A stretch of DNA of 64,000 nucleotides from Bugula neritina (Eukaryota; Animalia; Bryozoa), in the NCBI GenBank assembly GCA_964035545.1, contig OZ037766.1, forward strand, positions 3,162,001 to 3,226,000, written 5' to 3'. The position numbers were made by a program, and so were the translations under genes. Positions 313 through 43,944 of this stretch are shown here, one piece after another. Positions within the stretch are counted from its first letter, which is position 1; the number at the start of each line of letters is the position of its first letter. Under the pieces are notes generated by a model. It did not search any database. It saw only the letters and a program-made list of their open reading frames with translations, and was not told the DNA's origin.

Positions 313-2343
313 CTGGGAGTCTGCTGGTGTATCGGTACCAGTATACTTGGGAGGGGAGGTGACCACCTCGTCCTGTGTTGGCACCAGGTCCTCGGGCTCC
401 TGCTCCATTATACTGTAGTAGAGGAACTTGGAGAACATGTTCTGGTGGAGCAGCTTCTTGTGGGTCTGCTGAGACCGGTGTGGTACTCTGCTAATCTGCA
501 GAATACACTTACTATTTAATGTGGTACTCTACTAATCTGCAGAATACACTTACTATTTAATGTGGTACTCTGCTAATCTGCAGAATACACTTTTTTTTTA
601 ATGTGGTACTCTGCTAATCCGCAGGATACACTTACTGATGTGTAACTAGAGACTGCAGAATACACTTACTAAAATACGACACAGACTACTTAGAACAGCA
701 CTAACAAAAGTTTACGTTAAAGCCGGTAAAGGCTTTGCACAGCAGGAGTGGATACAGAAAGAGGGGGTGCAATAGGGAGTGATCAGATGGAATGAGTACG
801 GGTAGGTACAGCAACACAGAACACCCCAAACCTCCAAACTCTAAACCTCCAAAGCAAGATTTTACCAGAACAAAGTAATACTATAAGCCTGAACTACTGG
901 CAGTCAACCTCTCACCTCTCCATTCAACACCATCTCTGTGTAAAACTTCTTCAGCCAACTCCAGTCATCCTTCTGCTTGCGAATCAGATGCTTGTGAATA
1001 TCAAACTCATCAATGAGGAGGGTCTTGCCCACTCGGTGAATCATTAAGCTGATTGGTTTGTCTTTAGCGAATGGTACCTCGAGTAAACTTTTTATATTCT
1101 GTAAGAAAACACAGCAGACGCTGTGAGATGCGACTGGAAAATTTTGTAATCAGTTTAGCAACAACTATTGCTTCTTTCAGCAAGGATATGCACACTTGCT
1201 TTAAATAAGATTCCAACCACTAAAGTGAAAGACTTTTGCACACTGCTCGTTTTACACCATCAATGAATGTAATATTTACTCGACATGATAATTTCATCTC
1301 ATGAAAATTGCTGCCTATGGCATAGGAAGAGCTGTTAATCTGTTGAGAATGCATAAATATTATTTCAAACTTTAGTAAAACCTGTTTACAAAAGCTTGAA
1401 TAACTCCATCACAAAACTGAAGTTGCAAAATTGAATGGGGTTTTTATGACATTAACCAGTTATACACCATTTCATGTTATTAACATCATTTCAAAATCAT
1501 CGTTACAGAAACTAACTATGGACAGCCTACCTTTGCATCAGAAATAACATCTATAGAGTCCACATCTTCCACCTTGGACTCGGCCATTGAGATGCTAGAC
1601 ATGTTGGATCTCTTGTTTTTGCCATACAGCGCCCTCTGTATGTACTTCTCTATTGGAGACTTTGTTCTCAACCAGTTGTGTGGTGGTATCTTCAAATCAA
1701 GGTCCGGCCCCAACCACTGAATGCTAGTGGGAATTTCTCTCAGAGGATAATCTGTTTGAGATATATTAAAATTGATTGATTGATTTATCTATTGCATATC
1801 ACAGACATGACAACACGTTGCGAAATTCAGTGTAAATACTGGCTATATTATAAATAGGCATGAACAAAAATGAAAGAAAAAATAATAATAAAAAATGCAG
1901 ATGATGCAATTATTAGAAATATTTATTAGAATTAGAAAAGAAACCAAGTTTTCACGCAGCAAAAAGATGTTACTCTAACTCTATATAAACCAAGCCTACT
2001 TGGTTTACTGTAAGGACAACAAACATGGCTGACCACTTAAGTGTGCTAGAATATAGTACTTTTTCATTTTTAAATATACTTTCGAGTACACAAAACTTGT
2101 TAATAAGTGACAATAAACCAGGGAATATTAATCTCAGTGAAAATGAGAGAAAATTGTGGTAAATAAAATTCAAGGATTTGCGAAATTCTCTTAAATCTAG
2201 CAAATTAAGAAATTTGTACCTTCATATAGTACAAGAGCTTTAGAAGAGGAGCTGTGGATTGCAGTTGGTGGGTTATCTGTAGAATGTCTGTCTGTGTTGA
2301 CTTCACATTTATCTCCATCAGGAAAGTTGTCGCAATGAGACAT
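313..2343 (-). CDS. EDRF1: Erythroid differentiation-related factor 1 homolog, 5' coding exons (gene continues beyond the left edge of the window)
   Basis: Exons 2343-2220, 1751-1531, 1098-916 and 495-313 join in frame with GT-AG ends. Translation: MSHCDNF...SKALVLYEDYPLREIPTSIQWLGPDLDLKIPPHNWLR...VDSIDVISDAK|NIKSLLEVPFAKDKPISLMIHRVGKTLLIDEFDI...DDWSWLKKFY...|...NMFSKFLYYSI. This matches the EDRF1 N-terminal motifs as I recall them (DLxLPPxNWLR, DVxSDxENIKxLL, HRIGxTLLxDE, SKFLYYSI). Confidence 0.88.
478..640. repeat. ~41-bp tandem repeat (about 4 units) duplicating an EDRF1 splice acceptor and exon start
   Basis: Unit tgtggtactctgctaatctgcagaatacacttactatttaa is repeated. The first unit overlaps the true acceptor at 496-498. 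Confidence 0.9.
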
Positions 2344-2459
2344 ACTAGCTGCCCTGTATATTTTCAGTCACAAGTCTGACCTTCAGATTTACAACACAAA
2401 TATAGTAAACATGATCCGGCATAATTACTATCATTGAAATATTTTTGATGATGACGCAA

Positions 2460-3400
2460 CACATTACCAAAAATACATTAATAATTTAGTAGTTTGAGTT
2501 TGAATTAAACCATAAACACTGAAATAAATTATCAGCAAAACTTGGCATTTGATTTTATCATTTATATTTATCTTTCATTTATATCCATCCATCCATCCAT
2601 TTATATTTTATCATCATCATTCATCATTAAAATGATGATAAAATAATTTCAATAACAACAATAATATTAATACCTATAGGCTATAGCAATAGAAACCTCA
2701 ATAGTCATTATGGTTATGTTTATTATCAATATCATTATCATTGATTATGACAACATTCTAATTCATTTAAACTTAAACTTAAACTTAAACTAAAACTTGA
2801 CTTCGATTGATATTATATATAAATTGAATCTAGCTCTTTTTGTGTTACTGTTGTGTATTTGTATTTTTTTGTCCTTTTGTTTTTTTTGATGGAGAAACAA
2901 ACAAACAAACAAACAAATAAAGTGATCAATTCTTATGTTGAATTCAAAATCAATTATTATACTTGTACTTATAGAAAACTGAATAATATAGTATAATTGA
3001 ATGATAAAATTAAAAATATCAATAATCATAATGATAATGGCAATGCAAATTGTGCTTAGCAGCAATGTAGCAATGCCAATATGTTACTATTAGTATTACT
3101 ATTAGTATTAGTATAAGTATGACATTACCATTATCAATTAATATTATGAAACAGAATATAATAATATTAAATTGAATATATTATATAATAAATTTATAAT
3201 ATAATTATAAAATTAAACATTAATATTATCAATTTAAATTATATCCATAAACTTAAAGTTAGAGATAATCATAATGATAATCATAATATTATAATTATAA
3301 TATAAAATAATAAATATAAAATTGTAATCGATTACTACATTGTAATTGTTACTAAGTACAATTGTCAATTTGAATTAGTACTTAATTGAAGCGGTTGCAG
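2460..3400. repeat. Degenerate 3/6-bp-periodic low-complexity tract upstream of the EDRF1 ATG
   Basis: For example aacttaaacttaaacttaaactaaaacttgacttcg and tactattagtattactattagtattagtataagtatgac. The hexamer register is kept while the unit drifts. Confidence 0.7.
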
Positions 3401-6400
3401 GGCATGTATAAATATAATGATTTCCCAGACATTAGTCTAATGATCAGATGCATTGATTTTGAACTGGAAAAGACCAAAAGACCAAATATTTTGAGTTCAG
3501 TGATCAGATGATCCTGGTTGATATTATTAGTCGCTAGAATCATTATTTCAATTTTTTCTCTTTTCCTGCGCTTTCTAGACCTAGCTTTTAAACGAAGATG
3601 ATTTTCGAAACGATTCGGCTCCTCTCCCACCATAAAAAGTTAAAATAGCAGAAATCAAGACTTTTTAGAACATGGCTAAAGTTCGCTTGAAGCAGCGCCT
3701 AGTCGGGGGTCACTTAGGGACAGTGGTTCGGGTGTTTCAGAGGTTGTATACTAAGAACAAAGGCTCATATTTGCCTATACAAATTTGCATTAGTCTTTTC
3801 CGATTCTGATGCTGCTTCTAGGGATTTCTAACGCAACAAACTTTGTAACGATAACTCCAAAACATATATAATAAAAGCCTTTTCTCGTCACAATCTATTA
3901 CATTATAATCAACATTATATTCATATAATATTATGGTTTATCATTTCACAGTACACTGTACACCCTGGTTAAATCGTCAAACAAGTAGTACATAAGAACC
4001 AGACAGAAGGCTTCAAATTGTTTTTATCTATTAAATATGATATATGTATACATCTTGGCTGGTTAATAATGTGTAACTTAGTTTTAATCACATAATATTA
4101 TGTTGAATTATTTGAAGTTCATGAACTAAATTTTCATTCAGGTGTATGCACTATTAGATGTAGTATTAAAATAAAATACAATAAAGCAACCAGTTCCAGT
4201 CACACTGTATGTCAACTATTGGGTTGCAATGGTTTTTTTTATTAAAAGCACTTTAAAAAATATAAACTGCTTGAATTTCACCAAAAAGCTGAAAAAAATA
4301 TATAAACATAGGGTGTAATATTGAAAAACTAGACTATACTAAAACAAAACCGTGATTTGTTAAATGATCTACTGTCATATTGCGGGCAAACATGGTGTAT
4401 GCATGCCACATTTTTATTTCAACGTTTTCACAGTTAGTTTAAGGTCATTACTTTCCAGATTCAAGCACTGCTTTATGTTATATATAAACGGTTTCCAGGG
4501 GATAGCTCGAACAGTTTTTGTCTCACATTAACAAATTTTACATGAAAAGATAGCTCTTGCATTCCTCTTTCATATACTTTTTTAATTTTTCAATAAAAAA
4601 TTTTCTGAGAAAGTTGTTGCATAATAAGTAAAATTTTACACCCTCCATGTTCCACTGCTGTAGCACAGGGGATTCATTTTATAAAGTCTAAAAGTTAAAC
4701 TTGACATTCCTTGATATGTTTTCTCTAATATACTTTCTTTGTTTTTTGAAATTCTGTTTATGCTCTTCACAATTTGGTAAAAACATACACCATTTTGCAA
4801 GTTTCACTGCAATTTTCTAAATTCTTCATATGGTGGTTCTAGCTACGCTCCTGTGACTAATTATAACATTTCTAGTACGTTTGCCGCTCTGCGCTATCAC
4901 AATAACATATAGTACCCTCTCGCACAAATTGGCAATCTATTGGATTTCTGCCAATATAATGTTCCCTGTTTTATATTAGCACTTAGCTGAATCATCTCAC
5001 TATGTTATAATAATATATTGAAAATGCCTCAGCACAACATAATTCTTTGTTTGCTTGGCAGAGTTAATTTCAGCTAAATCACTTCACTTTGCAGTCTTGT
5101 CAGTAAAGGTCTGTCTATAGCGCAGCAGGTGTACTTTCAGTTTCTCTAATTCACATATGATTATTTTAAGTACATTGTATTCTATAAGATCAATTTAAGG
5201 TTTAGTCCAGTGTTCAGTGTCTAATTATTATGCATGTATGTTGTTTTACTGTTGAACAAAAGTTAAAAAAAAACTTTACAATTATAACCATATTTATTAT
5301 GCATGCGTAGGATTTGCATAAGTTGACAAAAAAAATTGCAACAAAACAGGGATGAACCATGACCAACCAACTCCTCACTGACGCCTCTAACCTCTAGACC
5401 ACGCAGTCATCGTTAATCAACGCGCACTATATGAGTGACTATCATTACATAAATATTTCGGCGCAAATGGGTTATAATTATTAGGCTGTCAATTCATGTT
5501 GATAGCAGTCAACTGTTGCAATAGTCTCGGGTTACTAGCAAAGCTAATGGTTTTGAACAAATAACCCAAAAGTTTAAAAATAAGTAGCTTGCGTATTACT
5601 AGCTACAAAAACAGGTCTGAAATAGACTGGTAAAGCAAGCTCTTATTGTAGAGTTTGCAGATGTGCTCTAAAATAAAACTTAAACTGTATGCTATTACAT
5701 AAGTATTTGTAAGCGAGAGATAAATGGACATTACTGAGTTTCTGGAAAACAACATACTTGAAGTTAACTTTGACAATGGTGTGTTATTTTCATCATAGCT
5801 AGCCTATAGCATAAATCTCTTATCATATGAATCTTTATGAAGCCCACAGCTCATGTAAGGGTGGCAATGTAATTTGAAATGAACAATTATGTTGCTGCAT
5901 TGTGTCTAAGGTATATTAGAGAGCAGAATTTGGTTTTACTAGCCTACCCCAACGGCATTCTACAATGCAGCTTATATGCTGGCAGTTGTAATAAGTACTG
6001 CCAATAGCAAGGTTACTATCACTGCTAGCTCTGTGCAGTATGTAACCTCTTGAATAATTGCGCCAATTTTAAACTCTTGGAAGTTGGCCAAGTTATCATA
6101 TCGCAGCCAGCCACCGGAGACAAAGCATCAGAGCTATTCATATAATATTATACTGATGCACTTGGTAGCAGAGTGGCTAATCTAATATAGTTCATAGTTC
6201 AACACCCTTTACTTTGGGAATACGGCCTCTTTTTTTAGGTTTACCTTACAAAGCATGAAAATATCTAAACTGATATTCTGATAATTTAGAGGTACATTTT
6301 GAAAACTGGGTTAATTGCACTTGTTTGCACAACAACAATAATAAAATAGATATTATGCAGGATAATAAAAACACACATAATACTATATAATATATTATAA

Positions 6401-16309: not shown

Positions 16310-17447
16310 CTTGTCCTCTTTGACTGAACTACTAAACTATTGCAATATAAACTGTACACCTCCCTTATCTACTTGTGTCCTCAGGTTGCAAGAGCATGAA
16401 GTAGCTATAGATACTGCCCTTATCAGAATACCAAGGTTAACTACTGGCATATTTCCAACCACGAAAGGACAAAATTTGACCTTTAACCTAGAAAGTAATC
16501 ACTAAACGGCTAAGATTTCCTCTCGGCTTACTGATGCGTGCAGTAGCTCAGTCATTGTATTTCTATAAACTTCTATCCTTCCTCTACTTATCCCAAAAAG
16601 AAGCAAAATATAATATTTCTTTGGCAATCACTAAGTTCCCATCGCTATCATAAGTTAATTCAAACCACAAATACTTGTATAGAAGAAGCATTCTACAATC
16701 TACTGCAAGCAATAGGACCTCAGTAAATTCCTCTTGAAACCATTAAACAATTTACACTGGAAAAATACATGCACACGTACAGTCCACGAGTGGCTGGTTA
16801 TCAGAAAAACAATTGTTATTTTCTATCTTGCAGAACACTACTGGCTGCTATGACCAACGTTAGTAATTGAGAGAAATCATTTTCACCACAAAATTGTTAT
16901 GCCATCACAAATTATTTTAAAGCGTATTATTTTAGACATACGTGTTGAATTCTAGTGTTTTAACAACTTGTTGCCTTGTCCTGGCTTTCAAGTATTGCTG
17001 TGAATTATTTCAAATAGAATTCAAAATTAGAAAAGTATAATTCTTTTATTCAAAAACTCATAAAAAAACCATACATATTTTGTGAAAAAAAACTAACAAT
17101 AATTGAAGATTGATGTTTTAATGCTATAGTTCAGCAGATAAAGATGTAAAAAACCTGAAGGGAATTTCAATTTAACAAACCTTATGAATATCATATGCTG
17201 CAAAATATGAAACACACATATACAAATGTTTTTGTTTAATACTAAGAGAATATTTCTGCCAATAGTAGAAAATGTTATTATATTACAATACATCACAACC
17301 AGTATTATTACTTGTCATGACCAATATAAGTTTATCACACGGATATTTTATGTTTTATAACATATATTTAATTATATTATTGTAAGTAAAACAACTTTAT
17401 TGCGCCATTACTTGGCAGCTGCGAGCATATTACATCATTGTTTCGTT

Positions 17448-20400
17448 TCAGAGTCTAGTCGGTTTATTACATACTGGGCAGGTAACAACACCTTTCTTCA
17501 TTCTTTCCTTTAAACACTGCAACGTTGAAAAAAGATTTGATTTAAAAAAAGAAAGATCTAATTTAAAAAAAGAATACCATTAGTAAAGCAAATATGTTAG
17601 AACACATTGCAATAACAGACTAGGAATAATTAATAAGTGGCCAAAAAAATTCAGAGAAGACAACTTTGAGTCGTTAAAACTATCAATATAATAATAATTA
17701 CTATTTGCATTATATATTGCTGAGAGAAGATAACTCATATAAACTTACAGATTCATGGAAATTATCATGTTTACAAGTTAACAATGACTTCTTATATGTC
17801 AAGGCTCTTCTACATACTATACATCTATCACCATCATCCTGTAATGAATAGCATATATTGTGTTATACAATAATAAAGTACATTACACGATTATATGCTA
17901 ACAACAAAAAACAATTTGTATAACAGGTATGGCTCTTTACACAATAGTTGACATTTATTATTTCAATGGCAAAATATAATACCGGCAATGAAAAACAATG
18001 AAAACCATTGAATTTTTCTTAAAATTTGCCTAATGTGTAATCGGTTTGAAAATCAATACTTGAAATAGAAAGATTCACTTTAGAAGGAGTAATTCATGTT
18101 AGCTTTAATAATTGCATGTATAACGATAGGTGGCTAGCTTAATCAGCCAATACAAAGTGTATAGACTAAGATCTTTACTTACAGACGGGGAGCTGGGCTT
18201 CTTCCTCAACTCATGCTCACCATGTGCGTACACACACTAAGAAAACAACAACACTATGCTACTATCATCAAGTAGATAAAACTGCTAGCTCATTGTAAGG
18301 CTTGCCAATGTTTTACATACTAAACTCTAAAGTCTAAACCATGACTGTTAGTTTCCATTAGAGTAAAAAAGAAGACAATTCTCAAATTGTAAAAAGAAGT
18401 AGTAATAATTCTAACTGAACCACCAAGTTGGAAATAAACCAAACCATCATAACAGTTATATAATCACATGACACAATTAAACTTAGGAATATCTTAAAAC
18501 AAAACTCGGTCGATGAATATGCGTTTTTTAAACAAAAAGAAACTGTGGAAAATAATCTACACACAAACAAGCAGACGTATCATACTGCACTCACTCTCTC
18601 TGGAGCATCATCATGCATACAGTGGCCCTTTTTATTGTCCAGACAGATTTCATTCTTAGGCATAGGCTTGAGCTCTGCCTCGCTGTGGGCAAACCAGCAA
18701 TTGGAGCCGTAACTGCATTGATTGAGAGGAAATCTGGGACACAAACTGGTCTTCTGCAGGAGGTACTTTATTCTACCAGTGCACTTCTGATCATTACACG
18801 GCTCTTCGTGTTGGTACTGCACGTAAAATAATTCATTTATCATAAATAATATGAATATAAAGGACGGCATGCATAAGACCAAGTAGGAGAAAAAACTACA
18901 TTTTTATTAAGTTACTCACACAAAAAATATGCAAAGTGAAATTAGGTTAAATGATGTACAAACACTACAATATAAAATACACATAGTCATTGATGAGAAT
19001 ATTCGAAAGAGGTTTGGCGAAATGCAGATCACAAAATATGATCACCGGAAAAATAAGCAGTAAAAACAAAATATTGAGTAATTTTCATTTATTTTTCAAT
19101 AACCTGCACCTTGTATAAATAAACACGAATAAAACTACAAGCTTACCGGATCTACTTTAACTACCAACTCCTCCTTGCCATGAGCATAATAACAACTGTC
19201 GCCATGTGGACATTTCTGATTGGCTGAATAATATTTACATAGACTAGTATACATTGGAGTTCTTGTAGAGACAGATGGAATCGTTGTGGTGGTGGTAGTA
19301 GGAGGTGTCTATATAACAGCAGAAGATGAATGTAGCTGAGGCTACAAACACAGCCACAGGTGTGGTTGTATTGGTAGCCTTACAAATGGTCTAATCTTTA
19401 AACAGTAAAGAAAAAGGCAACACCAACTAGGCAAGTGTGACACCTGCTAGTTGACAACACAGATCAGGTGCTCTCACGTTTTGGTAGACAAGGAGACAGA
19501 TGCTAATAAGTATTGAGATGAAATATGAATTCATACCGGATAGGTGATGGTTCGGAGTTCCGCCTCGCCGTGAGCGTAAGTGCACTTATCTCCGGCAAAA
19601 CAGTTTCCATATTTACTCCAGTGCATACACAGCACAGTCTTAGTCTTATCTATTCTCCCTGAAGAATGAAGAGGAGGTGTTGGGGCGGTGGGGGCCGCAG
19701 ACACCCGCTGTTCAGGCTTGAGAACCAAGGCTATCCTCCTTTCTGTCTCCTTATAAGCTCCATTCAAATCAGACAGCCCTATGTCCTGCGCAACCTTCTC
19801 AAACTTCTCTTTAATAGCTTTGCTACAACACATGTAAGTGACATAGACATTCGCACTAAACACTGCTTATAAATCTTGCATCTTCCAGTCAAGTATGTTA
19901 AATGCAGAGATTGGCAACTGGTGTATTGTTTGAATCACCAAAAAAGCCCCATGAACATATAGTAGCCATCTTTGTGAGAACTTCTGATAAACAGAGTTTT
20001 TATTAAAAGCGGACTAAGAACTTTTTCGCCATTATGACACAAAAGTAAGTATGACTGAATGCCTTCCTAAAATCATCAATAGTATTTAATTGAGATCAAA
20101 CCTAATTAAATGCCATTAATAATAAACCACCACTGATTGACTGGGACACAATAGTACAGAAAGTACAAGTCACACAGTTTAAAGTTCAAAGACGAACTCA
20201 CGGAGTCATCTGCTTATATTTCTTGGATAACCCGTTGAGTATAGCAATGAAGGATTCATTCGACCAGTCCACTTTTCCGAATGGTATTGCATTGCTCTTA
20301 GATTTAACTGCAGCAGCAGCAAGACCACTGTTTGCTGCCTTCACTGGGGATGTTGCTGCCGCAGTGGAGGGTTTAGTAGCGGCAGCAGTGGAGGGTTTAG

Positions 20401-23400
20401 TAGCGGCAGCGGTGGAGGGTTTTGTAGTTGGACTTGGAGTGGCCACTTCACCAGCCATAGATTTACTGGTAGAGACAACCGGTGCTGTTGAAGTTGATGG
20501 AATTACTGAACGATCTGTTAGACTGAGTTCTTTTATATTAAGATGGCCATTACTCTCGGAAGCTGCAATTAGATTGAAATTAAATTAGCCAATTAAAACT
20601 GTTCTAACAAACGTCATCAAATCAGCATTTACTTTATATTACACTCATATGTTATATAATTCGAATTGGCTATCAATCTACACATTTCTAACCACAACTA
20701 CACATCTTTAACCACAACTATACACCTTTAACCACAACTACATATCTTTAACCACAACTATACACCTCTAACCACAACTATACACCTCTAACCACAACTA
20801 CACATCTCTAACCACAACTACACATCTCTAACCATAACTATACACCTCTAACCACAACTACACATCTCTAACCACAACTACACATCTCTAACCACAACTA
20901 CACATCTCTAACCACAACCATACACCTCTAACCACAACTACACGTCTCCAACCACATCAAGCATTGTTACATCAAGCAAGTGCTAACAGAAGGCTGAGTG
21001 ACTCACTGTGATCTGGAGTTTGAGTTCTACTTGCTGCTGGAGATCCAAGGTCACCATAGAGAGTAGCCGGCAGCATACCAGGAGTGGCTGTACTATTTTG
21101 AAACACTGAAGGTGATTGTCTCCCCCATAAAGATGCTACTAAAACAAGAGAAATATCATTGAATAAATAATTTTGTAGGTCAAGAAGAGATTGCGTTGTT
21201 ACCACTTCAAACACGGAGGATGAAAGAAGATCTAGTTGGAAATTGCTTGAAAAAAGGACAAAGTTAATGGCAACTAAGTGCAGAGATTCGGAGGGGGGAG
21301 GAGTTCAGATACTAATGTGTATAAAAACACTGACTGCACTAATGACCCTCAATTTTTAGCTGCTTCTAGCGATTCTCGAACTGGTCAATTAAAACAGTTT
21401 GACTTGAGTATAATTAAAAAAATCAACAGTACTGGTCAGTAGAATGCATAAGGGAATGCAGGCTATGCTACCAAACGTGGAGCAACATTGAGGTGAAAGC
21501 AGTTTCCCCTTTAGAATAGGATTACATTACTCATGGGTTTTCCCATAGTGGAATTTCCCAACAACTAAAGATCAATTATGACTGGGGGAAGTTTGTGAAT
21601 ATGATTGCAGTTTGTGTTATAAGCACTAATTACTTCACACCTTAGAGGGTATTTTTGCACCCTCACATAAGTTGGGACTTACTGATGTCAAACACGAAGT
21701 TGTTTTGAACAGTGTATAAAAGAGGAGAGAGATAACTCCTAATATTCACAGGACTGAAAAACATTTCACTAGTAGATTAGCAAGTTTCCTATCAACTAAA
21801 TATTTTCAGAAATACCTGAAGAATCACCAAATGAAGAGTTTAACATCTCACCGTCTGTGAATAAACTTCTCTGCAAATAAACAGCATAAGTTATTAAAAT
21901 ATATACCTATCAGCACACTGAATGAGTACGTAATGATTTAGTATATAGTGACTGAGTATGTAGTGACTTAGTATATAGTGACTGAGTATATAGAGAAAAT
22001 AAATTATAAGCAATGATTAACAAGGCAGCGGCTAAGTGAGCAACTCATAAAGTGAAAGTATTAAAGGCACACTCAAAAGTATAACTATAAAAGCTCAAGT
22101 ATAAGCTGATGTGTAGGTATACCAAAAGAAAGCAAAAATAAGCGCAGTTTTAGCAACCAGAACAATATACACTTCACTCCTATTACATACCACGCTCTGT
22201 TCTGTGCTAGGCTGTGTGACAGACATTTGACAAGTTAGAAAAAATGATATTTACGAAGTCTCCAGCATAATTTTGTTACAACCTGAGCACACAGTTAGGC
22301 TATTGATACACACCACGGCATCTCTTACCTCTACACGAGTTACCTGCTCATCTCGCCAGTCTCTAACCTAACGTCACATACACTGATAGAGTATTTAATT
22401 TACACCAGACAGAATCAAACAACTCTAAGGGAGCAGCCGTGGTCTAGGGGTTAGAGCATTTGCCTAGTAAACACGAGGTCATGGGTTCGAGCTCCGACAA
22501 AGGCCATTGATGATGTTAGGAAGAGCATCCAGTTATAATTGCTCCTGTGTCTCATCTGAATAAGTCCTTAGCCCGATTTAACAAAAACCCCTTCCACCAG
22601 AGGCTTTCTCACAGAGATGGTGACTATAAACTTGGTTGATTGTGTGATAGAAATAACCAACAATTAAACATGTGATGGAAACTTGAAAACTAGCAACAGC
22701 CCATCATAAAAGCAATATTGAGCTAGCTAACTTTTGCAAACCCAAGTCTCTATACAAGTATGATTAGTCACATAATAAACTAAAAAATCCAACTTAGTAA
22801 TTTCCTGGCTTTAAACGCATACATCCATGTGGTGGGAAACCCATTTCCAAGACTGTAGCCTGCAGTTTTTTTTTAACTTACTTGTTGGTTAAAATAGAAT
22901 ACAAGCAGATTAAAATACAATAAATGCCGAATATACAACATCCAACAGCCTTTCCCAACCTTACCTCCACAAGGAGTAATACAACATTACCCCCATAGGA
23001 GTGGATACAAGTTTACCCCCACAAGGAGTGGCTACAACCTTACCTCCACAAGGAGTGGCTACAACATTACCCCCACAAGGAGTGGCTACAAGCTTACCCC
23101 CCAACAAAGAGTAAATACAAACCTCTGAAGTGCCGGAAATACCAGGTAGATATGAACTTTTTCCTCCTGCATAATCTGTGAAGGAGTCCATAGAATTCAC
23201 GCCACCACCAATTTCACCAAAGGTGGGTACACCGAGACCATTATTTAGCATGGTGTAATTACTTTCCAGCCCAGCTGGCTCATAGTTATACGCTGCAACA
23301 GAGTTGAATGACAAAATACTAAGAGATACACCAGATTTCTCTAATAGTGAAATTCAGAGAGGATCGGAGTAAAGAAAGGTCAAAATATTTTTACAATACA

Positions 23401-25297
23401 ACTCTGAAATTTAATATTGACAAAAATTTAAGGAAAGGAAACTGAAAATCATCCAAAATTCACCAGACAAATATTCTACGTGAGATGAGATACACACCAT
23501 ACTATTATCAGTATTATACCATATCATGCTACTTATACTAGATCTAGATGGGACAACAAATAATGGACATGAAAGTACCTTTTAGAGCCATCAATTTATC
23601 TGCTAATATCTTTTCCACATCTACTGAGCTCTCAGTGGTTAGGGGAAGGTCGTCCAGTGACAGACCCCAGTCTAACCCATCGATACACAACTTGTATACT
23701 TTCTACAGATTAGAGGGAAAGTGTTGCATAATCATATGTTGGCAAACCTGCATACACATACACATACAAACATATATTTAATACCGGAGTTTTTCTGCGC
23801 CATAACCTGAATATTCTGTAAAAAACTAAAAAAATAATCTCAGGAAAACTACTTGTCTCATGTTAGTAGATCGATCAATAGATCGAACAAGTTCCAATGT
23901 GGAAAATATGACCACTTATAAGAGCCAAGATGCTTGTACATATTATGATTATAGGAAGCTTCATATTTATGAAACTTTTTAGATTACATCTCTACTTGAA
24001 GAATAAATTAAATTTAAATTATCACAATATATACAGTGATGCTTCGAATGAATATTATTCATTCAATTTCTGAAGTCTAAAAGCTTCAAGCATATAAAAT
24101 ATAATATATATATATAAGAAAATATATATATGTAATATAATAAACAAGATAATATGTGTATAAAATTATTAAAAAATAAAACATATGTGTACATTATAAT
24201 GTATCCAACAGGTTTTTAGAGTTTTAAATGATCCTAAACGTTATCAAATGTATAATTCCAAAAATTAAATTCACTACAGAACAAATAGAGACATTTACTT
24301 ACTTCCACTTCATCAATACGCTTTAACAACAGCGTAGATTCATTCTTAAAGTCTTCATCTATTCTCTTGATGTGCCCAGGAACGGCACTGTATAGCGGCA
24401 GACTCAACTTACGTCTGTACTCATCCTCCGCTACAGTCAGGTCATTCTTCAACCGACCAAGACTCGTGTCTTTCCGTAAACTAAGATACGCTTTCTAAAA
24501 GCCAAAACTTTAATTAAAAACAATTCATGTTCCACTTCATGGTTTTTACTCCTTGTTTGAAACAAAAATATATAGCTTACAACCACAATCAAGATGTTGA
24601 GATAACATGTGCATTAAACAAAAATAAATTTTAATTTTATATAACAATCAAAGCTTCTCATTTAGACTCTGGTGACCTAGAAACAGTTTGGTGTTACATC
24701 GCTACATCCTATTTTCAGCAGACCAAGGCTAGAAATACATCTGTAGACATATCGCAGATTTAAGGTCCAACTACTTTGATTAACATAAGAAGATTATTAC
24801 AGTATATAGATTAGGGTCACTAAGCCTATGATTATTACAGAGTTTGCAAAACTAAAACAAGTTGAATTTTCTGAATAAGTTAACAATTTCTCAAGTCGAA
24901 TCAGAATTTAGAACACACTGTTTTATTTAAATTTTAAATGAATGGCACAATGTATTGCAACATTTTTGTCAACCACTGTTGGCATGTATTACGTCATGTA
25001 ATTTTCTTTTATTTTTAGTAAGGGTAATGGTTTAGTGCCCACTGTTTTGTTTGTCAAGCTGTGGTTTATCTACAGCAACATATCTGATATACACCTTTTA
25101 ACACTTTTAAACTTTCATAAAAAAGCGTAGCTCAGTTATTGAGTTTAAGGTAAAACACAAAAATCATCCTAGAAATCAGAAAGTGAAAGTAGCACTTTCA
25201 AATAAAGAAATCATAGTCAACTTACCTCAGCTTTTAAAGCTCGTTCCTTCATATAATTGTACTGTGATGCAGATATTACAGCCTCATTCTTAGCCAT
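17448..25297 (-). CDS. Multi-CCCH zinc finger protein (4 TIS11-like fingers) with C-terminal RING-H2; putative RNA-binding E3 ubiquitin ligase
   Basis: 13 phase-consistent exons: 25297-25226, ~24494-24304, ~23702-23579, ~23340-23123, ~21870-21852, ~21136-21007, ~20563-20201, ~19822-19536, ~19308-19147, ~18816-18595, 18236-18183, 17838-17749, 17516-17448. Fingers: KTVLCMHWSKYGNCFAGDKCTYAH, YTSLCKYYSANQKCPHGDSCYYAH, KTSLCPRFPLNQCSYGSNCWFAH, EICLDNKKGHCMHDDAPERCVYAH. RING-H2: CIVC..CKHDNFHESC..CPVC. An AATAAA lies on the minus strand at 17396-17401. Confidence 0.85.
20676..20960. repeat. 20-bp minisatellite (tacacatctctaaccacaac)n, ~14 units, intronic
   Basis: Directly visible tandem array. Confidence 0.95.
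22429..22640 (+). mobile_element. tRNA-derived SINE, full-length copy
   Basis: Head gggagcagccgtggtctaggggttagagc...cctagtaaa...gggttcgagctcc has A and B boxes and a Thr(AGT)-like anticodon loop. The body contains aggaagagcatccag and the tail is gtgactataaacttg. At least five other copies are present in the window. Confidence 0.88.
22960..23105. repeat. 30-bp tandem repeat (~4-5 units) immediately after a donor site of the CCCH-RING gene
   Basis: Unit ttacccccacaaggagtggctacaacc/ag. It gives the GGKxVATPC repeat seen in the read-through ORF. Confidence 0.85.
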
Positions 25298-25689
25298 TGT
25301 TGAGAATTAGAATTTCAGCAGCCGTAAGGAAACCTTGGACTAAAAACATTGATATGAAGAATACCTTTGGGTAATATAGAGTAACGTGCAAAGCAAATAA
25401 AACTGACTAATATAACGGAAGAGCTCAACATAATAGTAATAGTGAACCTAAACTATCACTATAGTCTACAAGTATAAAATCACACAACCACACACATGCA
25501 CGAACACATACACATATTGGTATTAATCTAAGTATATATACTGCTATATATATAGTTTTTACAATAATAATTTCAACTAAAGCTTATACTTATAGTTATA
25601 CATAAATTCCTGCAAAATTACAAAATTAATTCTTAAAGTTGAGAAGTAAACGAGGTAAAAGGTATATTATTAGCTGGTCATGGTTGAGT

Positions 25690-27190
25690 ACGCTGATTAT
25701 TATTATGATTATGACTTACTTTTAGTCCCAAAGATATACTAATACTTAGGAAATTACTTATAGTTATTGTTATAACTTAAAATATGACTATCACTATGAT
25801 TATTAGTAAGTAAGGTATGAGCATCACTACGAGTATGATCATGATATTCATTATCATGATCATGATTATTGAATGAATGAATAACAAATGATACTGATAG
25901 CATGATTATTAATTATAACCGATGAGTCATGAGCAGCAGCATCAGTATTACTATTACGATAACTATTACTAGTATTATTACCATTAGTATACTGTAAAGG
26001 TAGCACTGTTACTGTTAGTGTTACTGTAAGTGTATGTCAAAATGTAACACCAACTGTGAGCTACTGTTAGTGTGGAACTGCAAGTGTAGGACTATCATCT
26101 ATAAATATAACTATCAGATAAGTGTGAGTATCAGTATGAGCATGACTATGATTAAAATTGTCACAGACTCAGACTCACGTTCAATCGACATTCACTCGGA
26201 CAGTGACTCTGAGTATCACTATTAGTATAAGCATGGCTGAAAGTCACTCACAATGACAATGGATATCACTATGACATATGACTAATGAGTATCAGCATGA
26301 CAGTGATTGCGAGTGTGACTCTCACTGTGAGCCGCACTCAAAAGTAACCCACAGCCCACTAACGATAAGTATAACAGAAATGCTAACTGTAATTCAAACT
26401 GTAAGACTAAGTGAGTAACACTAACTGTAACTGTACGTGTAAGCCATTGTAAAAGTCAAAGTGAATGTGTATAATCAGCTATAATATTCAATAGTACAAA
26501 GCATGCTATAAATATAATATACAAATACAATTATGAATAAGTAGGAAAAATTTTGACTTGATGAAAATGGTTCTATATCGTTCATTCCTTATAGCTTTTT
26601 ATTATTGCAGCTTAAAACAGCTATCGTGAGAATAAATGGTACTTAAATTAAATAGCAGTTAATGTTATTATAGTTGACCAAAAACTTGCTAGTATAAAAG
26701 TATACTGATACTCATACTGTAGCTGTGTAACTGTGAGTCACTTAGTAACTGAAAGTGTATAGCTTCAGCTTGGCCTTAAAAACAATCACTCAATGACAAT
26801 CACAATGACTATGACTATCACTATGACTATGAGTAATACTAATACTAATAGTAACACTAAATCTAACAGTAATACTAATACTAATAGTAATACTAATAGT
26901 AATACTAATGTAATAGACAACAGTAACTGTAACTGTAAGTGTAAGACTAAGTGTAACACTAAGACTAAGACTAAGAGTAAGTGACTAACATTAACAGGAA
27001 CACTCTAACAGCAACAGTAACACTAACGGTAATTATTTAGTTATCCTATTAGTTTTAGTTTTGCAATTTCAATTTGATCAATAATTTTGATCATTATCAC
27101 TATCATCTATGACTATCATCATGATATTCATATTGATTTAAATTATCATTATCATTATGATAACGATAAAAAATTGACGTGATATACTTA
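25690..27190. repeat. Degenerate 6-bp-periodic tract (consensus ~ANTRTN) in the probable first intron of the CCCH-RING gene
   Basis: For example, from 26005 actgtt actgtt agtgtt actgta agtgta, and from 26793 atgaca atcaca atgact atgact atcact...aatact aatagt aacact. It produces the spurious T/S/N/I/M-alternating ORFs. Confidence 0.8.
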
Positions 27191-27191
27191 C

Positions 27192-27773
27192 TTATAAATT
27201 ACAACTATGCGAATGGGCATTAGCCATGAAATTCAACCACAAGACTAAGTATGACCATGCTATTTTTCTTGTACAGAAAAATGTCAAATAATGAAATATT
27301 AATAATAGTATGTGAACAGCATAGCGATAGCCATGGTGAAATAATCAAGTCTAAATGCGTTTTATTTCACAATGTTTACGCAATATTTTCTGTTAGTTGT
27401 CAGCACACCTGTATAGTGTACGAGAAGATAACCCTGTTATTACAACTGTGTTTCAACATCCGTTTTACAACGAACCAGGTTTTTTTCATGCTGAACATTT
27501 TCAGTCCGTAATTTTTTACAGAAGCTGCGTACACCAACATGTTGTTGAAGATCGATATAACTATAAATATAAACGTGGTTTTACAGCAGAAATAAAAATT
27601 AGGTGCGTTCTAGTAGTTCCAATAGTTGTTTATCACATTTTAAAGTAATATTAATAACAATATAATTGTAATACGTAGTGCCGTAGACGGTAGTGGAGTA
27701 TCAAATTATCATAATCAGTATCATAATTATTTGGATTTGTTATCAGTATCATCGTCAGCAAACTAAAGTCCAG
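27192..27773. promoter_or_regulatory. Putative bidirectional promoter and 5' UTR region shared by the CCCH-RING gene and HBS1L
   Basis: A non-periodic segment between divergent genes. A minus-strand donor (gtaagt, 27191-27186) could pair with the acceptor gtttttag (~25340) just upstream of the CCCH-RING ATG. The HBS1L ATG is at 27774. The TSS positions are inferred. Confidence 0.5.
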
Positions 27774-30700
27774 ATGTCCAGACATCGTCATTTTGTCGAA
27801 ATAAATCAAAAATACAAAGGTGAGTTTGACATCTGAGTTAATGTTATGCTATTGTTTATTAAATTATAATAATTATTAATATTATTCTTATTGTTATGAT
27901 ATCCAATCACTCGCATCATCATGATCACGGTCACCATCAAATTGAAATTCAATGAAAATATCAATATAAAATACATCGACATGTAATTTTCGTTTCTAAT
28001 TAAATTTACTTTTAGTAAATTACTAGGTAATACTAATATTGTAACTGCTACGCCTACGGTGATGAATAAGATTAATACTAATGCTAATACTAGTGATACT
28101 AATAGTAATACTAATAGTATTTTCTATGTAAAATTGTTTTTCGGTTTAGTGATACTCATAGTCATAGTCATATTAATATTTTACTAATAACACTAACTGA
28201 TTACAGATACCTAAGTGATGTTGCTATGCCTATTGTCATTATGATTATCAATATCGGCTATGTTTGTGCTATGTCATTATCTACTAACATAGCAGTTTAG
28301 TTCACTTTCAGATTTGCGAGAGTTTTCTTTGCCCGTGGCCACTGTCATAGATGACATTCATAATGATAATCATTATTATTAAAACCATTGCGTTTGACAA
28401 TCAAAATGAATATTTATATCAAGACATTCACATTGTCATTGTCAACTGGGTTTGGCATTTAATGTGGCAAATGTTTTCTATGCTAGTGTCTGGAGATAAT
28501 TGCACTGCACCTGCATAATTTTTTATAAGATACTTGAATGTATTATAAGATAAAATTGTGTAATATTATAATTGTCAAATGATTTCCCTGTAGAATATGA
28601 TGATGACTATGTTGATGACGAAGATGACTTTGGATCAAGTTCCTACACAGATCAGTACGGAGTTTCTCCGAGTACAGGTAAATTTTAAAGCTCGAGAGCC
28701 TTAAATCTACACAATAACTTATGCTAAAATATGCCATATTAAGTAAAGTAAGCCTGCTACCTCACTGAACAAGAATGTTTAATTTGGTTGAATACTTGTT
28801 GCTTTGTCACATGAACAATGTATAACCTCTGTTGATTTCTATTGATAGCCGCGGAGTTTACTTTTAACCGAGATAGTCGTGGTAACGCCTCTTTTGCCGA
28901 CTATCTCAACAAAGAAGAAGAAAGAGGAATTCCGGAAGAGATTATAGAGGATGTTCTAGATGACTCTGGAAGCCTCCAGACTCTGTTGCTTTCAAACGAA
29001 GATGAAGGTAAAGTTCAGTCGTTTATTCTGCAAATTGCTCATGCTATATGATTAATCGAATTATTGCTTGGTTATATTTATGTTAATGTTTGAGCAGCTG
29101 TTGACTCCAAGTGTTAGTAGCGGTTCGTTTGAAGATTTACTATGCATATTTTGTAGTCAAATTGAGATCCTGCTTGGACGAGGTGCAAAATATTATCGGG
29201 GACACAATTCCTGAATTGATAGTAAAACGAACCATCATAAACAATAAGTTTGATTTAGAAAGATCTCTGGATGCACTGCTTACTGAACAAAGTAGTCATT
29301 CATGTAAGTGAACGATTTTATTCAATCACTCATTCACTCACTCACTTACTCCATTACTCACTCACTCAATTACTCACTCACTCACTTACTCACTCACTCA
29401 ATTACACACTCACTCTTTCAATCAATGATTCACTCACTAACTCAATTACTCACTCGCTCTTTTAATAAATCACTCACTAGTCACTAATAGACTAACTCAA
29501 TTACTCCCTCAGTAATTTTTCAACATACAGTGACAGCTCATATTCAGCCTAAGAACATTTGGTTTCAAAGCAACATATATTCATTATTTTCTTTCACTCA
29601 CTTCGCTTGGAGACTGTCAAAGAAATTTTGGTAATTTAAATAAATTGCGTGAGTGTAACAGCAATGTGAATTTTTAGAACTTGACAGTGTAAAATTTTTT
29701 TGATCCTGTGAAATTTTACTGTGCTATTTTGTTTTCATATGTGATCTACATTGTTTGGTGTTGAAACAGCACAGTTCAGGGTAAAATAATGTTCACCTGT
29801 TTGTAGCCAAGTCAACAGGAGACTCAGCTCGCTCCAGTTCCTTGTCAGGTAATTACTTGGTTACAGTATTTCTGTCATTGTCTACATTATTGTGGTATAA
29901 TAATCAACTGCTTGCTGTATTTTCACCTCTAAAGTTACTCTTTAAATATAATTTAATGTACTTATGAGTTGTCTTTCCCTTTGTTACTTTTTGTATCCTA
30001 CTCGATAATGATACATTCCACACAGTAAGGGTGCATCCAGTCTGTTAAAGCAATGGCTGCTAACAACAGTCTGCTGGTCTGGATTTTCTCTGCTCTTCTG
30101 CTGGATGTTTCTCTCTTCTATCAGGTGAAGTTGTCTGCTCCCCGCACATCGCGTCAGCTGCATCCGGTGGTAGACTCGTTGCAGCCGGATCTCCTTTTTT
30201 AAAAAGTTCTCCACATTTCGCTGGTGTCTTATCGTCAAGTAATATAAGCAAACTATCTAACTCAAAGTTGAACTCTCTCAGTTTGAGTAAATTGAGTCAA
30301 TCATCTGGAATCAAAAGCAAGTCAACGGTTAAACTATCTCTGGGAAATTTGAACAAGTTAGACTTAAGTACATCAACAGGTCCGAGTGTGTCATTGAAAC
30401 AAATGGCTGAAGGACATTTGAAGGGCAAGCAGATGACTAATCCTGGTGATGCATCTAAAAAGCCTCTCTTGTCACTCAGCCTGTCAAATTTAAAGCCCAA
30501 GTTCGGCTTACCTGCTGCCTTGAAAGTAAGAGACGGTGGGTCTGACAGACTGTCAAATGCTGAACCTATGGAGGTTAGCTTATCTACTGCTGTCAAAGAA
30601 ATTAGGGCTGTTGAACCACAGAAAACTCTAGTTAGTATTATGACTCACAATGAAATTATTGCTGATAAACTTATACCTATGACCATATCATCCTTTGCTA

Positions 30701-33700
30701 GAATACTGTGTAGTATGGTTAGTAAACAGACCACCCCTTCTCATTCATCAGACTGGAGTTATAAGAATCAACTATGTGGTGCTCGCCGAGCCCGTCGCTC
30801 ATCTGCTGCACATTTCAAACCTTATTTTACTATCAAATCTTTTGAATTTGATACTCCATCTCCTGACGACGTTGTGCTTGCTAAACAGCGAAGAGCTTTC
30901 ACCAGAGATGGCCGAAGTAAGACATCGGCGCAGTAACAAATACAGCTAAATTTGTATCGTATAAACCACAAGAGACTGAAACATATAGTTTTAATTGCTG
31001 ACAGCGTATTTTAATTATTATTTTTATTTGGTGGGTATTAATTGTTAACAATGGTAAATAATTTAAATATGTTAAAACTTTCAAATTATCATGTATGCGT
31101 AACATATTTTACTACATTTAAGGATAAATTTTCAAGAAAATATACACAATTGCATATATAAATTTATTGTCCAATATCCTTTATGTAATATATATATATA
31201 TGTTCTACTTGAATTAAAAATCAAGAAGATTTCTCTGTTTTTATTCTATGCTGCCAGGGTGCTGCTCAATAATGGTGCTGCTACACAGAGCGAATTTCTG
31301 CATGGATCACTAGCAAAAATATGTGCAGGTTTCATGCTGTCAAGACGTCAGCACCTTTAGATAAACCAAGTCTAAAGCTGATTAACAAGTGTAGATTGTG
31401 GCGGCCAAAAGTTTTGTCTAATATCTAAGCACATTGAAATTTAATACTCTTGCAACGGGTTTACTAGAATCTCTAATTTTTTAGAGAAAGGAAATTGATT
31501 TATCATGTTATAACCCCACTCGGTAGCTTAAGCCTGATAGCTTGCAGTTAGTGACGTTTTTGTGCAGTATTTCCTCTAGAGTCTTAGATTTGAGTCTACA
31601 CCATGATAATGATACGTTTGATGCTTAGATTTGATAGTTAGAATTGATCATTGTTTTTAATTATTCGAGTCTCCCTCCACTTTCCCAAGGAACCTCTTAG
31701 CCATTGCTCTCTACCTCAAGCTAAATTGTGTATCGGTTTGATGTTACTCCCACCCTTCCTCTGATGGTGTTGACATATGTGCAGTTCTAAAGAATTCTCA
31801 CAGTTTGATGTCGTTATCTGTAGGCCTTTGTCATTATAATTAATTACCCAAAATGCAATAACCAAAGGCTGACTTGCGTGTATGAGCAAATTTATGCAAC
31901 TTTAATTTTTATGTTTATTATTTACGCAAAATATATACTATTGTTTATGTTATGTTTGCATGGATATCAATGTCTTAGTTCTACATCAATGCGTCTGTAT
32001 TTTATTAATTGAAGTCTCTTTTTCCTGACTTTCACTTAGATATAATATTATGACACATAACTTTAATCTAGAACATTGTTTCATAAAGTTAGCAATGCCA
32101 GAGTTAGTTTTTCACAGTAGCAATGTGGCTTTACATGCAGCAATATAGTTTTGCCAAATTAATTTTAATAGTGAAGTTAAAAGCCATGTGCTGAAATTGA
32201 CATTAAAGTGTTTCTACTATTCCGGATGCCCTATAATTGAGATTTTTTCTTTTTCTGTTATCTGAATTCTCTCAACTTGATTTGAGAGTTTCTTTGCTTT
32301 ATAAGGAGTTGTCCCCACTCTTTCTACCCCGTCTGACAAGCTAAAACAGCCCCCTGTGAAGTCCACTCCTGCCAAGCCTATCAAGTCAGCGGCCGTGTTT
32401 CACATTGGTGATGCTACTAAATCGGATGACGAAGCAGAAGGCAGACTGTCCACCCCGGCTTCTCAACTTAGCCTCAAGTCAAATACTAATGGTTAGTCAA
32501 CATAACCTTGGACCTAAGGCTAATTATAAACTAATGTCATTTAAAGTCAATCACACGATTGTGAATCAATCAATAGTAAGTAATCGGATTCTTATTTTCA
32601 ATATTTGAGGAGAAGATTCAATTTCAGTCATGATGGTGAATTTATCATCAACTATTGCAGGTGCTACAACTCAAAATAAAAAGGAGATGAAAACTCCGGT
32701 TAGTGCCCAACTAAAGGGTATTAAAAGTTTAATAGAGGAGGAGAGTGCAAGGAGTCCCTCGCTGAGTCGAAGCTCATCAAAGTACACAGGCTTTCAATAT
32801 TTAGATTCCCACCTAATATGATAAGTCACTTGCTTGTATTATAGATACAATATACAGTAGGTGATGTCATGTATTATAGATACAATATACAGTAGGTGAT
32901 GTCATGTATTATAAATACAATATGCAGTAGGTGATGTTATGTGTTATAGTTACAATACGAGTAATATTATGTGATGTTGCAGATCTAAACTCGAAAGACT
33001 CGATGCAGCCGTTGAGTATGAAAAGAGAACCTCTGAAGGAAAAGATCTCATTAATCTGGTAGTCATTGGTAAGTTATTGCTAATATTGACCAATCACTGT
33101 TAGCTAACCTTAAACATGAACCAATCACTGTTAGCCAACCTTAAACATTAACCAATCACTGTTAGCTAGCCTTAAAGTTGACCAATCACTGTTAGCTATA
33201 GATATTGGCTAATCATGTTATTTTAACCAATTTCATCGCAACTAATCTAGCCAATCACTGTAACCATTTACCACTAAGCGGTCAATATTTTATATGTACT
33301 TGTAGGATTTATTAATTTTAAAAATATTTTCAGAACTGCAGCTGCTGATTTTCTATAAATAACTATTCACCAAATGATTTGTTGTTATATCCCTCATGTT
33401 TACCAAATTTTGATATGATAGAAGCACATACCAACACACATTTACAGAAGACAATACAATCGTATGATAGTAAACCAAAGTGGTTTTCCAGTTACTTATC
33501 ATGAAAGGCAATTTATTGTTAATTCTTTGGTATGCAACTACCTCCTAGACATACCTCTGTAAAGCTATATAAAGCTAAAGACTGGTTTTTTCTACTAACT
33601 ACAGAATTCAGCCATGTTGCAATTCCCAACAATATTATACATTTAGATTACCTGCATTTTATTATCTGTGTTTTCCCTAAACCTACATGTATGTACAATG

Positions 33701-43290: not shown

Positions 43291-43511
43291 ATTGTCTGAA
43301 TCAGAATAATGTTTTTATAGGTTTACAAGCTTATATTTGAGTTATACCAAGCAAATAAATATTATAAACAACTGGTTCTACAAGTAATGAAAGCTTAATA
43401 GGAAATGTTTTTATAAATGCAACAGTGAATTTTAGTTAAAAACCATATAGTAAGCCTATATAGCTTATGACAGGTTTGCATCTAAAACTATAATGTGCAT
43501 ATAATAATTAT

Positions 43512-43944
43512 TGGTCATTTTACTTAATTTAGTACACACTGGAAATCTCCAGTTTTTAGCTATTTTTTACAATTTAGCTAGCTAATGAACATATGGGTTT
43601 TGCCCAAAACTAGTAAAATATGAATGAATACACCTAAATAGTCATAGTTCTTTTTAATTTTGCTTGATTTTTCTTCTTTTTTTTCTTCTAATTATTCAAC
43701 TACTTTTGATTTCGGAAAGTTATGGATTTCTTCATAACGCTCTACAATCAAAAGTAGCTGAATAATTAGGAAAAAACATGGGAAATCAAGCAAAATTAAG
43801 AAGAACCTTGGTTATTTAGGTGTGTTAATTCATATTTTATTAGTTTTGAGCAAAAACCCATGTTCATTAGCAGCTAAATTGTAAAAATTACCGTAGCTAA
43901 AAACTGGAGATTTCCAGTGTGTACTAAATTAAGTAAAATGACCC
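43512..43944. mobile_element. ~430-bp palindromic MITE (Kolobok-like, TTAA-flanked)
   Basis: ggtcattttacttaatttagtacacactggaaatctccagtttttagc... pairs with ...gctaaaaactggagatttccagtgtgtactaaattaagtaaaatgacc. Pairing extends almost to the centre. The right end reads gaccc|ttaa and the left flank is degenerate (ttat|tggtc). Confidence 0.8.

Follow-up and report, generated by a model that had tools for sequence, protein, structure and literature searches.

Degenerate hexamer-repeat tracts beside CpG-retaining cores in a 64-kb stretch of the Bugula neritina genome: a candidate promoter-proximal DNA element

Introduction

Why should the DNA on both sides of a promoter keep a six-base period over hundreds of bases? 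The question is raised by a stretch of 64,000 nucleotides of the bryozoan Bugula neritina (GenBank assembly GCA_964035545.1, contig OZ037766.1, positions 3,162,001 to 3,226,000 of the forward strand), referred to below as the window. In it a putative bidirectional promoter, lying between a gene for a protein with three CCCH zinc fingers and HBS1L, is flanked by a left and a right tract of hexamer-periodic DNA, and a third tract lies at the 5' end of EDRF1. An initial annotation had proposed that such tracts mark housekeeping or germline promoters, either as a functional signal or as a footprint of slippage or repair. The tracts are described here as mosaics of degenerate hexamer repeats beside CpG-retaining cores. 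We favour, with a probability of roughly 0.45, the interpretation that they represent a slippage-fed, selected DNA-level element beside the promoters of broadly expressed genes, which would work like intron-mediated enhancement (IME).

Results

A six-base period in three tracts

Identity at lag 6 was 0.500 in the left tract (25690-27190; 0.290 expected from composition) and 0.488 in the right tract (27830-28450; 0.301 expected); null values ranged from 29 to 32% in both, and harmonics were present at lags 12, 18, 24 and 30. With Markov models of orders 1-3 (300 simulations each, none reaching the observed value), z was 14-18 for the left tract, 8.8-9.6 for the right tract and 8.6-9.2 for the EDRF1 tract (2550-3400; lag-6 identity 0.50). 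The six-base register that had been read by eye on both sides of the putative promoter was thereby confirmed, as was the view that EDRF1 alone shares it and that the ACSL, Reeler and GPCR (G-protein-coupled receptor) 5' regions do not: the 5' regions of the ACSL-like (16330-17400) and Reeler-domain (43500-45600) genes and the interval 54000-57000 contained no tract (z -0.7 to 1.1). A 300-bp sliding scan of the window found no fourth tract, its other signals being ordinary minisatellites with units of 12 bp and 20/24 bp (near 15.0 and 20.4-21.0 kb). The core between the left and right tracts (27191-27829) was weakly periodic (z ~3). The tracts are 0.6-1.5 kb long and lie just inside the starts of three genes. 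The limit of 25690 first given to the left tract was too narrow, the signal fading out near 25400.

Contigs assembled from sequencing run X1, which is possibly the window's own source, agreed with the window without any difference over 22571-26834 and with 4 substitutions and 6 gap letters over 26885-28524. A lineage about 7.5% diverged, from another study (run X2), carries a piece of the right tract (28152-28440) at single-copy depth, differing from the window by 6.2% substitutions and by 24 gap letters over 289; over most of the left tract no long piece of that lineage was found, which says nothing either way. The period-6 tract is a real sequence feature.

Unit grammar and block structure

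A strand-symmetric model derived from the three tracts had the form A(0.78) S(0.80) T(0.77) N W(0.93) N. The ANTRTN-like unit originally proposed was borne out: it fitted 77% (left), 75% (right) and 59% (EDRF1) of the duplicated units, against 20-24% in nulls, and the looser form ANTNWN covered 83-89%, against 43-52%. Units occur in both orientations and avoid CpG, A-runs and adjacent G/C in general (CpG being only one such case); those with adjacent G/C made up 5-9% in the tracts versus 31-38% in slippage nulls. CC and GG steps were strongly depleted in the left tract (observed/expected ratio (o/e) 0.39-0.44).

The left tract was resolved into 21 phased blocks of 10-256 bp (median 36 bp), with about 20 register slips. 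The unit does drift within a held register, as had been described, inside the blocks; no continuous register runs across the tract. Lag excess was 0.25, 0.18, 0.13, 0.09 and 0.08 at lags 6, 12, 18, 24 and 30. At a score threshold of 30, Tandem Repeats Finder (TRF) covered 33% of the left and 23% of the right tract, and the remaining sequence kept a lag-6 identity of 0.42-0.44. Since block structure and lag decay are those of slippage with point mutation, the earlier statement that the sequence is not a microsatellite holds in a narrow sense only (TRF covers at most one third and the rest is periodic); in the wide sense the tracts are microsatellite-derived. As expected of a degenerate microsatellite, tandem units exceed chance, similarity decays with distance and neighbouring units are one change apart.

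Six was the sole enriched unit length. Exact tandem arrays of six-base units numbered 27 in the three tracts (1.2 expected), and the other lengths gave observed/expected counts of 45/67 (1 base), 3/11 (2), 51/46 (3), 9/14 (4), 5/4.6 (5) and 1/0.5 (7); in the window outside the tracts, lengths 1-8 were all mildly raised (1.1-3.3 fold). Degenerate simple sequence is also termed cryptic simplicity, for which 1-4-base units should be at least as enriched and the vocabulary set locally; here lengths 1, 2 and 4 were at or below expectation and the vocabulary was shared. Its cosine between the three tracts was 0.74, 0.52 and 0.58 (nulls 0.20-0.27), values reached by 0, 0 and 1 of 160 runs in which slippage was simulated on real window DNA under a simple model without context-dependent mutation. 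Plain slippage fits poorly because a single unit length is enriched and words are common to the three tracts; a generic slippage footprint, one of the explanations offered at the outset, is disfavoured, length 6 alone being enriched. The tracts are mosaics of degenerate hexamer repeats in both orientations.

CpG-retaining cores, genes and first introns

CpG o/e was 0.40 in the window outside tracts and cores, in introns and intergenic DNA alike and including the Reeler/GPCR-like region. The two highest of 64 one-kb bins were 27001-28000 (1.18) and 3001-4000 (0.85), and all three tracts adjoin them. Methylation is inferred because CpG o/e is low across introns and intergenic DNA; the depletion, with CpG kept at promoter cores, suggests genome-wide methylation and island-like promoters. 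No bryozoan methylome paper was found in the literature searched. The EDRF1 promoter is one-sided: it has no recognisable divergent partner, the tract is on the transcribed side only, and the far side of the core (4000-5600) has none (lag-6 identity 0.24-0.32). The tracts fade out before the next exon, with gradual edges.

Three of the six recognisable genes in the window carry a tract. The genes include EDRF1 (- strand, 5' end at about 2.3-3.9 kb), an AMP-binding ACSL-like gene (-), the CCCH gene (-), HBS1L (+) and a Reeler-domain gene (+); a GPCR-like last exon near 55.7 kb was recognised by eye and has no Pfam match.

It is well supported that the right tract fills HBS1L intron 1, because the first coding exon ends in the best donor, exons 1-4 form one open frame of 141 amino acids and a spliced contig of run X6 starts at 28592. 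Run X6 was taken as RNA, a guess backed by canonical splice joints. Exon 4 has an HBS1_N Pfam match and the best PDB match of a later exon is Hbs1l (E 1.5e-27); exon 1 searched alone gave no PDB match. No X6 contig covers the first exon of HBS1L or of the CCCH gene, which is uninformative either way.

At the CCCH gene, high-depth contig cover of the ATG exon ends before 25355, and candidate donors for an upstream exon lie at 27408, 25719, 26178 and 27191. Because no such upstream exon was observed and there is more than one possible donor, including that at 25719, the assignment of the left tract to a first intron is provisional. The EDRF1 tract would also occupy a first intron, with the same layout as at the CCCH gene. 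The predicted EDRF1 ATG exon has a short likeness, seen by eye, to the N-terminus of P0001 that was not recovered by tblastn; an EDRF1 exon gave its best match in Watersipora subatra (66% identity), the other six of seven matches being in arthropods (54-59%). The first-intron location claimed from the start is accordingly well supported at HBS1L and predicted at the CCCH gene and EDRF1.

Tract words and similar arrays at other loci

Tract words are common to thousands of contigs: 3,373 contigs of run X6 fell on 25150-28760, a figure for abundance that carries no positional information. Depth at 26676-27009 in run X1 was about 4000-fold single-copy, and because this bin holds the longest register block, similar words must exist at very many loci.

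A degenerate 24-base motif, with one match in each of the left and right tracts and none in 100 shuffles, was used for searches. Metagenomes gave three matches, of which L001 is a short match in bacterial-looking DNA. The others, L002 and L003, are on eukaryote-like contigs that are GC-richer and CpG-depleted; in both, an extended tract runs to the contig end beside a CpG-richer block (flank lag-6 z 5.0 and 5.3). The CpG-richer block of L003 finishes within coding exon 1 of diphosphomevalonate decarboxylase (MVD; E 0.01 over 22 residues, with 3 of 3 matches to this enzyme), a GT donor follows at 3341 and the tract starts about 25 bases later. Random placement would put a tract in this position with a chance of a few percent, as estimated from typical genome and gene numbers. 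L002 is ambiguous because it has no recognisable gene and donor-like words are on both strands. The units of both loci fit the tract grammar, and L002 matches 28147-28178 at 30 of 32 bases, in a segment selected by the search motif. The proposal that the tracts mark housekeeping promoters gained support in its link to promoters, through the top CpG bins, the placement on the transcribed side only at EDRF1 and the MVD case.

Scans of viral contigs with the motif gave 0, 0, 7 and 6 matches, and prokaryote genomes gave 2. Most of these 15 matches are short; L009 and L014 are longer hexamer arrays, and because of them tract words are not unique to a promoter setting. A flank lag-6 z of at least 5 was found at 4 of 18 outside loci (L002, L003, L009 and L014), three of which also avoid adjacent G/C (L002, L003 and L009). 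A protein scan of the viral contigs found no relative.

L002 (2828-2884) and L003 (2907-3019) also have in common a GC-rich element of about 50 bases, located 400-700 bases before the tract; L003 holds two inverted copies, which form a hairpin upstream of MVD. The element is a candidate housekeeping promoter motif or small mobile element, and no Rfam family was found for it. Degenerate four-base arrays that avoid adjacent G/C occur at 29322-29459, in a later HBS1L intron, and at 3180-3300 of L002, just before the hexamer tract; L002 has 10 four-base arrays versus 1.6 expected.

Other identities for the tracts were rejected. For a hairpin or cruciform, inverted matches were many but imperfect, and 25900-26890 folded with a z of 0.30 (12 of 20 shuffles as good). 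For coding sequence, the reading frames of the tracts are short, low in complexity and made of dipeptide runs broken by stops, and the ends of spliced contigs fall at the exon edges that face the tracts. For structured RNA, Rfam gave only a tRNA-like match at 10459 in the window and 4 matches in L002/L003, all far below gathering scores.

Comparison with known systems

Like CpG-island shores, which flank unmethylated promoters, the tracts border cores that retain CpG amid general CpG depletion. Shores are defined through methylation and are not known for any periodic sequence, whereas the tracts are periodic and methylation is here deduced from CpG depletion.

IME signals are described in promoter-proximal introns of plants, where they act within about 1 kb of the transcription start site (TSS) in either orientation (PMC3355757, 10.1101/269852). 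They consist of dispersed, orientation-independent short words with a proposed action as DNA; the words of the tracts are likewise dispersed, lie on both strands and may act independently of orientation. On the distance of about 1 kb the tracts in HBS1L and MVD intron 1 fit, and the left tract reaches 1.5-1.8 kb, the TSSs being predicted ones. IME words such as TTNGATYTG are scattered and neither tandem nor phased, whereas the tracts have grown by repeats into a mosaic with period 6, and in an animal. What defines IME is an effect on mRNA level in a reporter, and the tracts are likened to it from sequence alone.

The periodic An/Tn clusters (PATCs) of Caenorhabditis elegans have a 10-bp helical period of A/T runs, lie in introns of genes expressed in the germline and have been traced to Helitron minisatellites; they are also proposed to protect active genes from silencing (PMC7725773, 10.64898/2026.08.08.743475; see also PMC4947018). 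Like PATCs, the tracts are non-coding, intronic, periodic, repeat-derived and convergent across loci; unlike them, they have a period of 6, and no parent element can be recognised. In the five tracts (L002 and L003 included), spectral power at 10-10.5 bp was 0.33-0.69 of the mean, with power at 6, 3 and 2, so the PATC period is lacking. The A-clusters are lacking too: per kb, A4/T4 runs numbered 12-19 in the tracts of the window, 0-2 in L002/L003 and 21 in the background, and AA o/e was 0.47-0.88 in the tracts. The loose analogy with PATCs drawn at first thus survives for position and repeat origin and fails for the 10-bp period and the A-runs, which are depleted. Bryozoans and a 6-bp period are not mentioned in the main text of the PATC preprint (10.64898/2026.08.08.743475).

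Microsatellites of promoters and first introns, including Arabidopsis CTT repeats just downstream of TSSs, have likewise been documented (PMC5622345; see also PMC2680414, PMC3840602, PMC4725869). They share with the tracts an origin by slippage, closeness to the TSS and drifting units; the examples considered are short arrays of 1-5-base units, and the tracts are kilobase mosaics with one unit length and one grammar. In the literature searched, mostly open-access main texts, no description of such tracts in bryozoans or other animals was found. The accessible main text of the Flustra genome paper mentions no simple repeats, promoters or methylation (PMC13326412), and a bryozoan simple sequence repeat study lists 2-5-base units only in its accessible part (PMC11489315). 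The period-6 tracts are a candidate DNA-level signal not described before in that literature.

Feature coordinates and other features of the window

Table 1. Coordinates of the tracts, cores and exons in the window.
Feature	Position	Strand	Evidence
Left hexamer tract	25400..27190 (strong 25690-27190, weak to ~25400)		lag-6 0.50, z 14-18; 18 exact hexamer arrays vs 0.5 expected; 21 phased blocks
Longest unbroken 6-bp register block	26725..26980		Viterbi phase segmentation; unit drift ACTATG class to ACTAAT/AGTAAT to ACTAAG
Right hexamer tract, HBS1L intron 1 (27820-28593)	27830..28450		lag-6 0.49, z ~9
Third hexamer tract, more A/T-rich, directly 5' of EDRF1 ATG exon; predicted first intron	2550..3400		lag-6 0.50, z ~9; 7 arrays vs 0.8 expected
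CpG-retaining core, putative bidirectional promoter	27200..27773		CpG o/e 1.18, highest of 64 bins
CpG-retaining core, putative EDRF1 promoter	3400..3900		CpG o/e 0.85, second of 64 bins
HBS1L first coding exon	27774..27819	+	ATG to strong GT donor, best donor score within 27600-28590
HBS1L exon 2	28594..28677	+	GT..AG joints 28675-28847 and 29005-29155 in X6
ATG exon (ATG at 25297), three-CCCH-zinc-finger gene	25226..25339	-	X6 joints 24494-25226, 23702-24303, 23292-23579, CT..AC ends; AG acceptor 25340
Predicted EDRF1 ATG exon (ATG at 2343)	2220..2354	-	sequence reading; downstream exons match EDRF1_N

The CCCH gene is spliced and spans 18580-25339 (- strand), with zf-CCCH matches; its N-terminal part had no match among Pfam families or Atlas clusters. 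Inside HBS1L, an open exon of 290 codons (30064-30936, + strand) ends in a stop, and a homologue search with it found nothing; its end is similar to the motif by which the short, Ski7-like isoform of HBS1L binds the exosome. A short intronic repeat at 22428-22586, flanked by A/T-rich loose ends, had about 4000-fold single-copy depth in run X1 and was very deep in all four runs. The same stretch of 40 codons occurs in opposite orientation at 59119-59238 and 61799-61918, 2.6 kb apart, and the pair likely represents inverted transposon ends. A CpG-rich block at 49100-49700 (o/e up to 1.23) lacks a tract, contains two similar segments and is likely a young repeat. An inverted repeat pair at 43510-43945, upstream of the Reeler gene, resembles by eye a miniature inverted-repeat transposable element. 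The weak tRNA-like match, at 10459-10529 (+ strand) in an ACSL intron, is possibly the head of a short interspersed nuclear element or a pseudogene.

Discussion

Under the interpretation favoured here, six-base slippage would supply the units, point mutation would drift them and a filter would retain those that fit the grammar. The likeliest filter would be a requirement either for many low-affinity sites of a protein reading a six-base step or for uniform DNA free of A-tracts, GC steps and CpG. Action as DNA is suggested because the units are in mixed orientation. The effect would be to sustain the transcription of broadly expressed genes and to keep methylation off their promoters, in a genome that appears to be heavily CpG-methylated except at tract-flanked cores, and it would resemble plant IME in being dispersed, orientation-independent and confined to about the first transcribed kilobase.

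Several observations weigh against this interpretation. The sample is small, with 3 of 6 window genes and one clear plus one ambiguous outside case. The right tract differs by 6.2-9.9% between lineages and introns by 6.8-8.4%, which is no conservation above intron level. Exact vocabulary common to the window tracts and to L002 or L003 is scant once the search motif is taken out (p < 0.05 in 1 of 6 pairs), and the slippage null against which vocabulary was compared is a simple one. Viral contig L009 holds a similar hexamer array poor in adjacent G/C. Tract-free 400-bp windows reach a CpG o/e of 1.0-1.24 (24101-24500, 49201-49600, 30801-31200 and 62301-62700). The PATC preprint reports that convergence of independent loci on one period can result from mutational bias by itself (10.64898/2026.08.08.743475).

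The foremost rival, to which we give rather less than an even chance of one in two and which on balance is unlikely, is a neutral footprint: at germline-active, unmethylated promoters, transcription- or recombination-linked repair would duplicate six-base units and ectopic gene conversion would homogenise words among thousands of tracts, with no function. Divergence at intron level with many gaps, a lag excess that decays within about 30 bp, as slippage predicts, and one-sided placement that tracks transcription all agree with it. So do two reports: in Arabidopsis, the CTT repeats directly 3' of TSSs fall together with crossover peaks (PMC5622345), and PATC periodicity is reported to arise from transcription-coupled mutational bias (10.64898/2026.08.08.743475). 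A general rise in slippage should however favour 1-4-base repeats most, yet none of these is enriched, nor are lengths 5 and 7. The units avoid all adjacent G/C, beyond CpG. We also know of no mutational process specific to six-base units, which counts against a neutral origin.

It is improbable that the tracts are relics of an old mobile minisatellite, Helitron-like as has been proposed for PATCs, which would have landed beside active promoters and since changed past recognition, whether or not it was co-opted afterwards. Common words at thousands of loci and the motif-selected match of L002 to the right tract speak for such an origin, for which precedents are reported in C. elegans and oyster (10.64898/2026.08.08.743475). 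Best local alignments among the five tracts, on the other side, score 33-66 over about 30 bp and are equalled in 9 of 10 pairs by 48-bp block-shuffled nulls; no common termini or element body were seen, the edges are gradual, and no Rfam family was found at the tracts. Membership of a dispersed transposable element or satellite family, which the initial annotation had named as a possible refutation, therefore found no support, there being no collinear homology or common termini among the five tracts. A very old mobile-minisatellite origin is conceivable and would be compatible with later selection.

A signal at the RNA level, in which decoy U1 or branch-point words would keep a nascent transcript with an A/T-rich first intron from being cleaved too early, is very improbable. 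In its favour, certain units are identical to donor-like or branch-point-like words, the sense strand of the right and EDRF1 tracts is enriched in branch-like words, and AATAAA is rare. Against it, GTRAG is absent from both strands of those two tracts, its density in the left tract is higher on the antisense strand (9.3 per kb) than on the sense strand (2.7), and units are in both orientations. No more credible is an origin from decayed telomere repeats added at promoter breaks, to which the period of 6 and TTAG cores raised in the left and right tracts would point, the commonest units being one or two substitutions from the animal telomere repeat: TTAGGG is absent from all five tracts, so that they do not qualify as interstitial telomeric sequence, the CC/GG steps of the left tract are strongly depleted and orientations are mixed. 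An assembly or sequencing artefact, conceivable in that X1 may be the source of the window and its sequencing platform is unrecorded, can practically be dismissed, since contigs assembled separately agree with the window over 4.2 kb and 1.6 kb, a diverged lineage from a second study holds part of the right tract at single-copy depth and the same grammar occurs in another organism (L002/L003).

For two general questions, how methylated genomes fence off their unmethylated promoters and how first introns raise expression, there is no simple sequence handle. If the tracts are neutral, the process behind them would be one of mutation or recombination that specifically duplicates six-base units, and to our knowledge none is known from any animal. 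If instead they are a selected DNA-level element, a visible tract of one period would provide such a handle, mappable by sequence and open to deletion, inversion and shuffling. In a bolder form, which we hold to be doubtful at about one chance in four, a period-6 code would mark the first kilobase of housekeeping units in bryozoans, and perhaps in other invertebrates with heavily methylated genomes, being read by a dedicated protein or through DNA mechanics, renewing itself and keeping gene-body methylation off the promoter; it would then be the equivalent, written in sequence, of a CpG-island boundary and would join PATCs as a second licensing code with a period. The tract could also serve as a promoter finder in poorly annotated bryozoan genomes.

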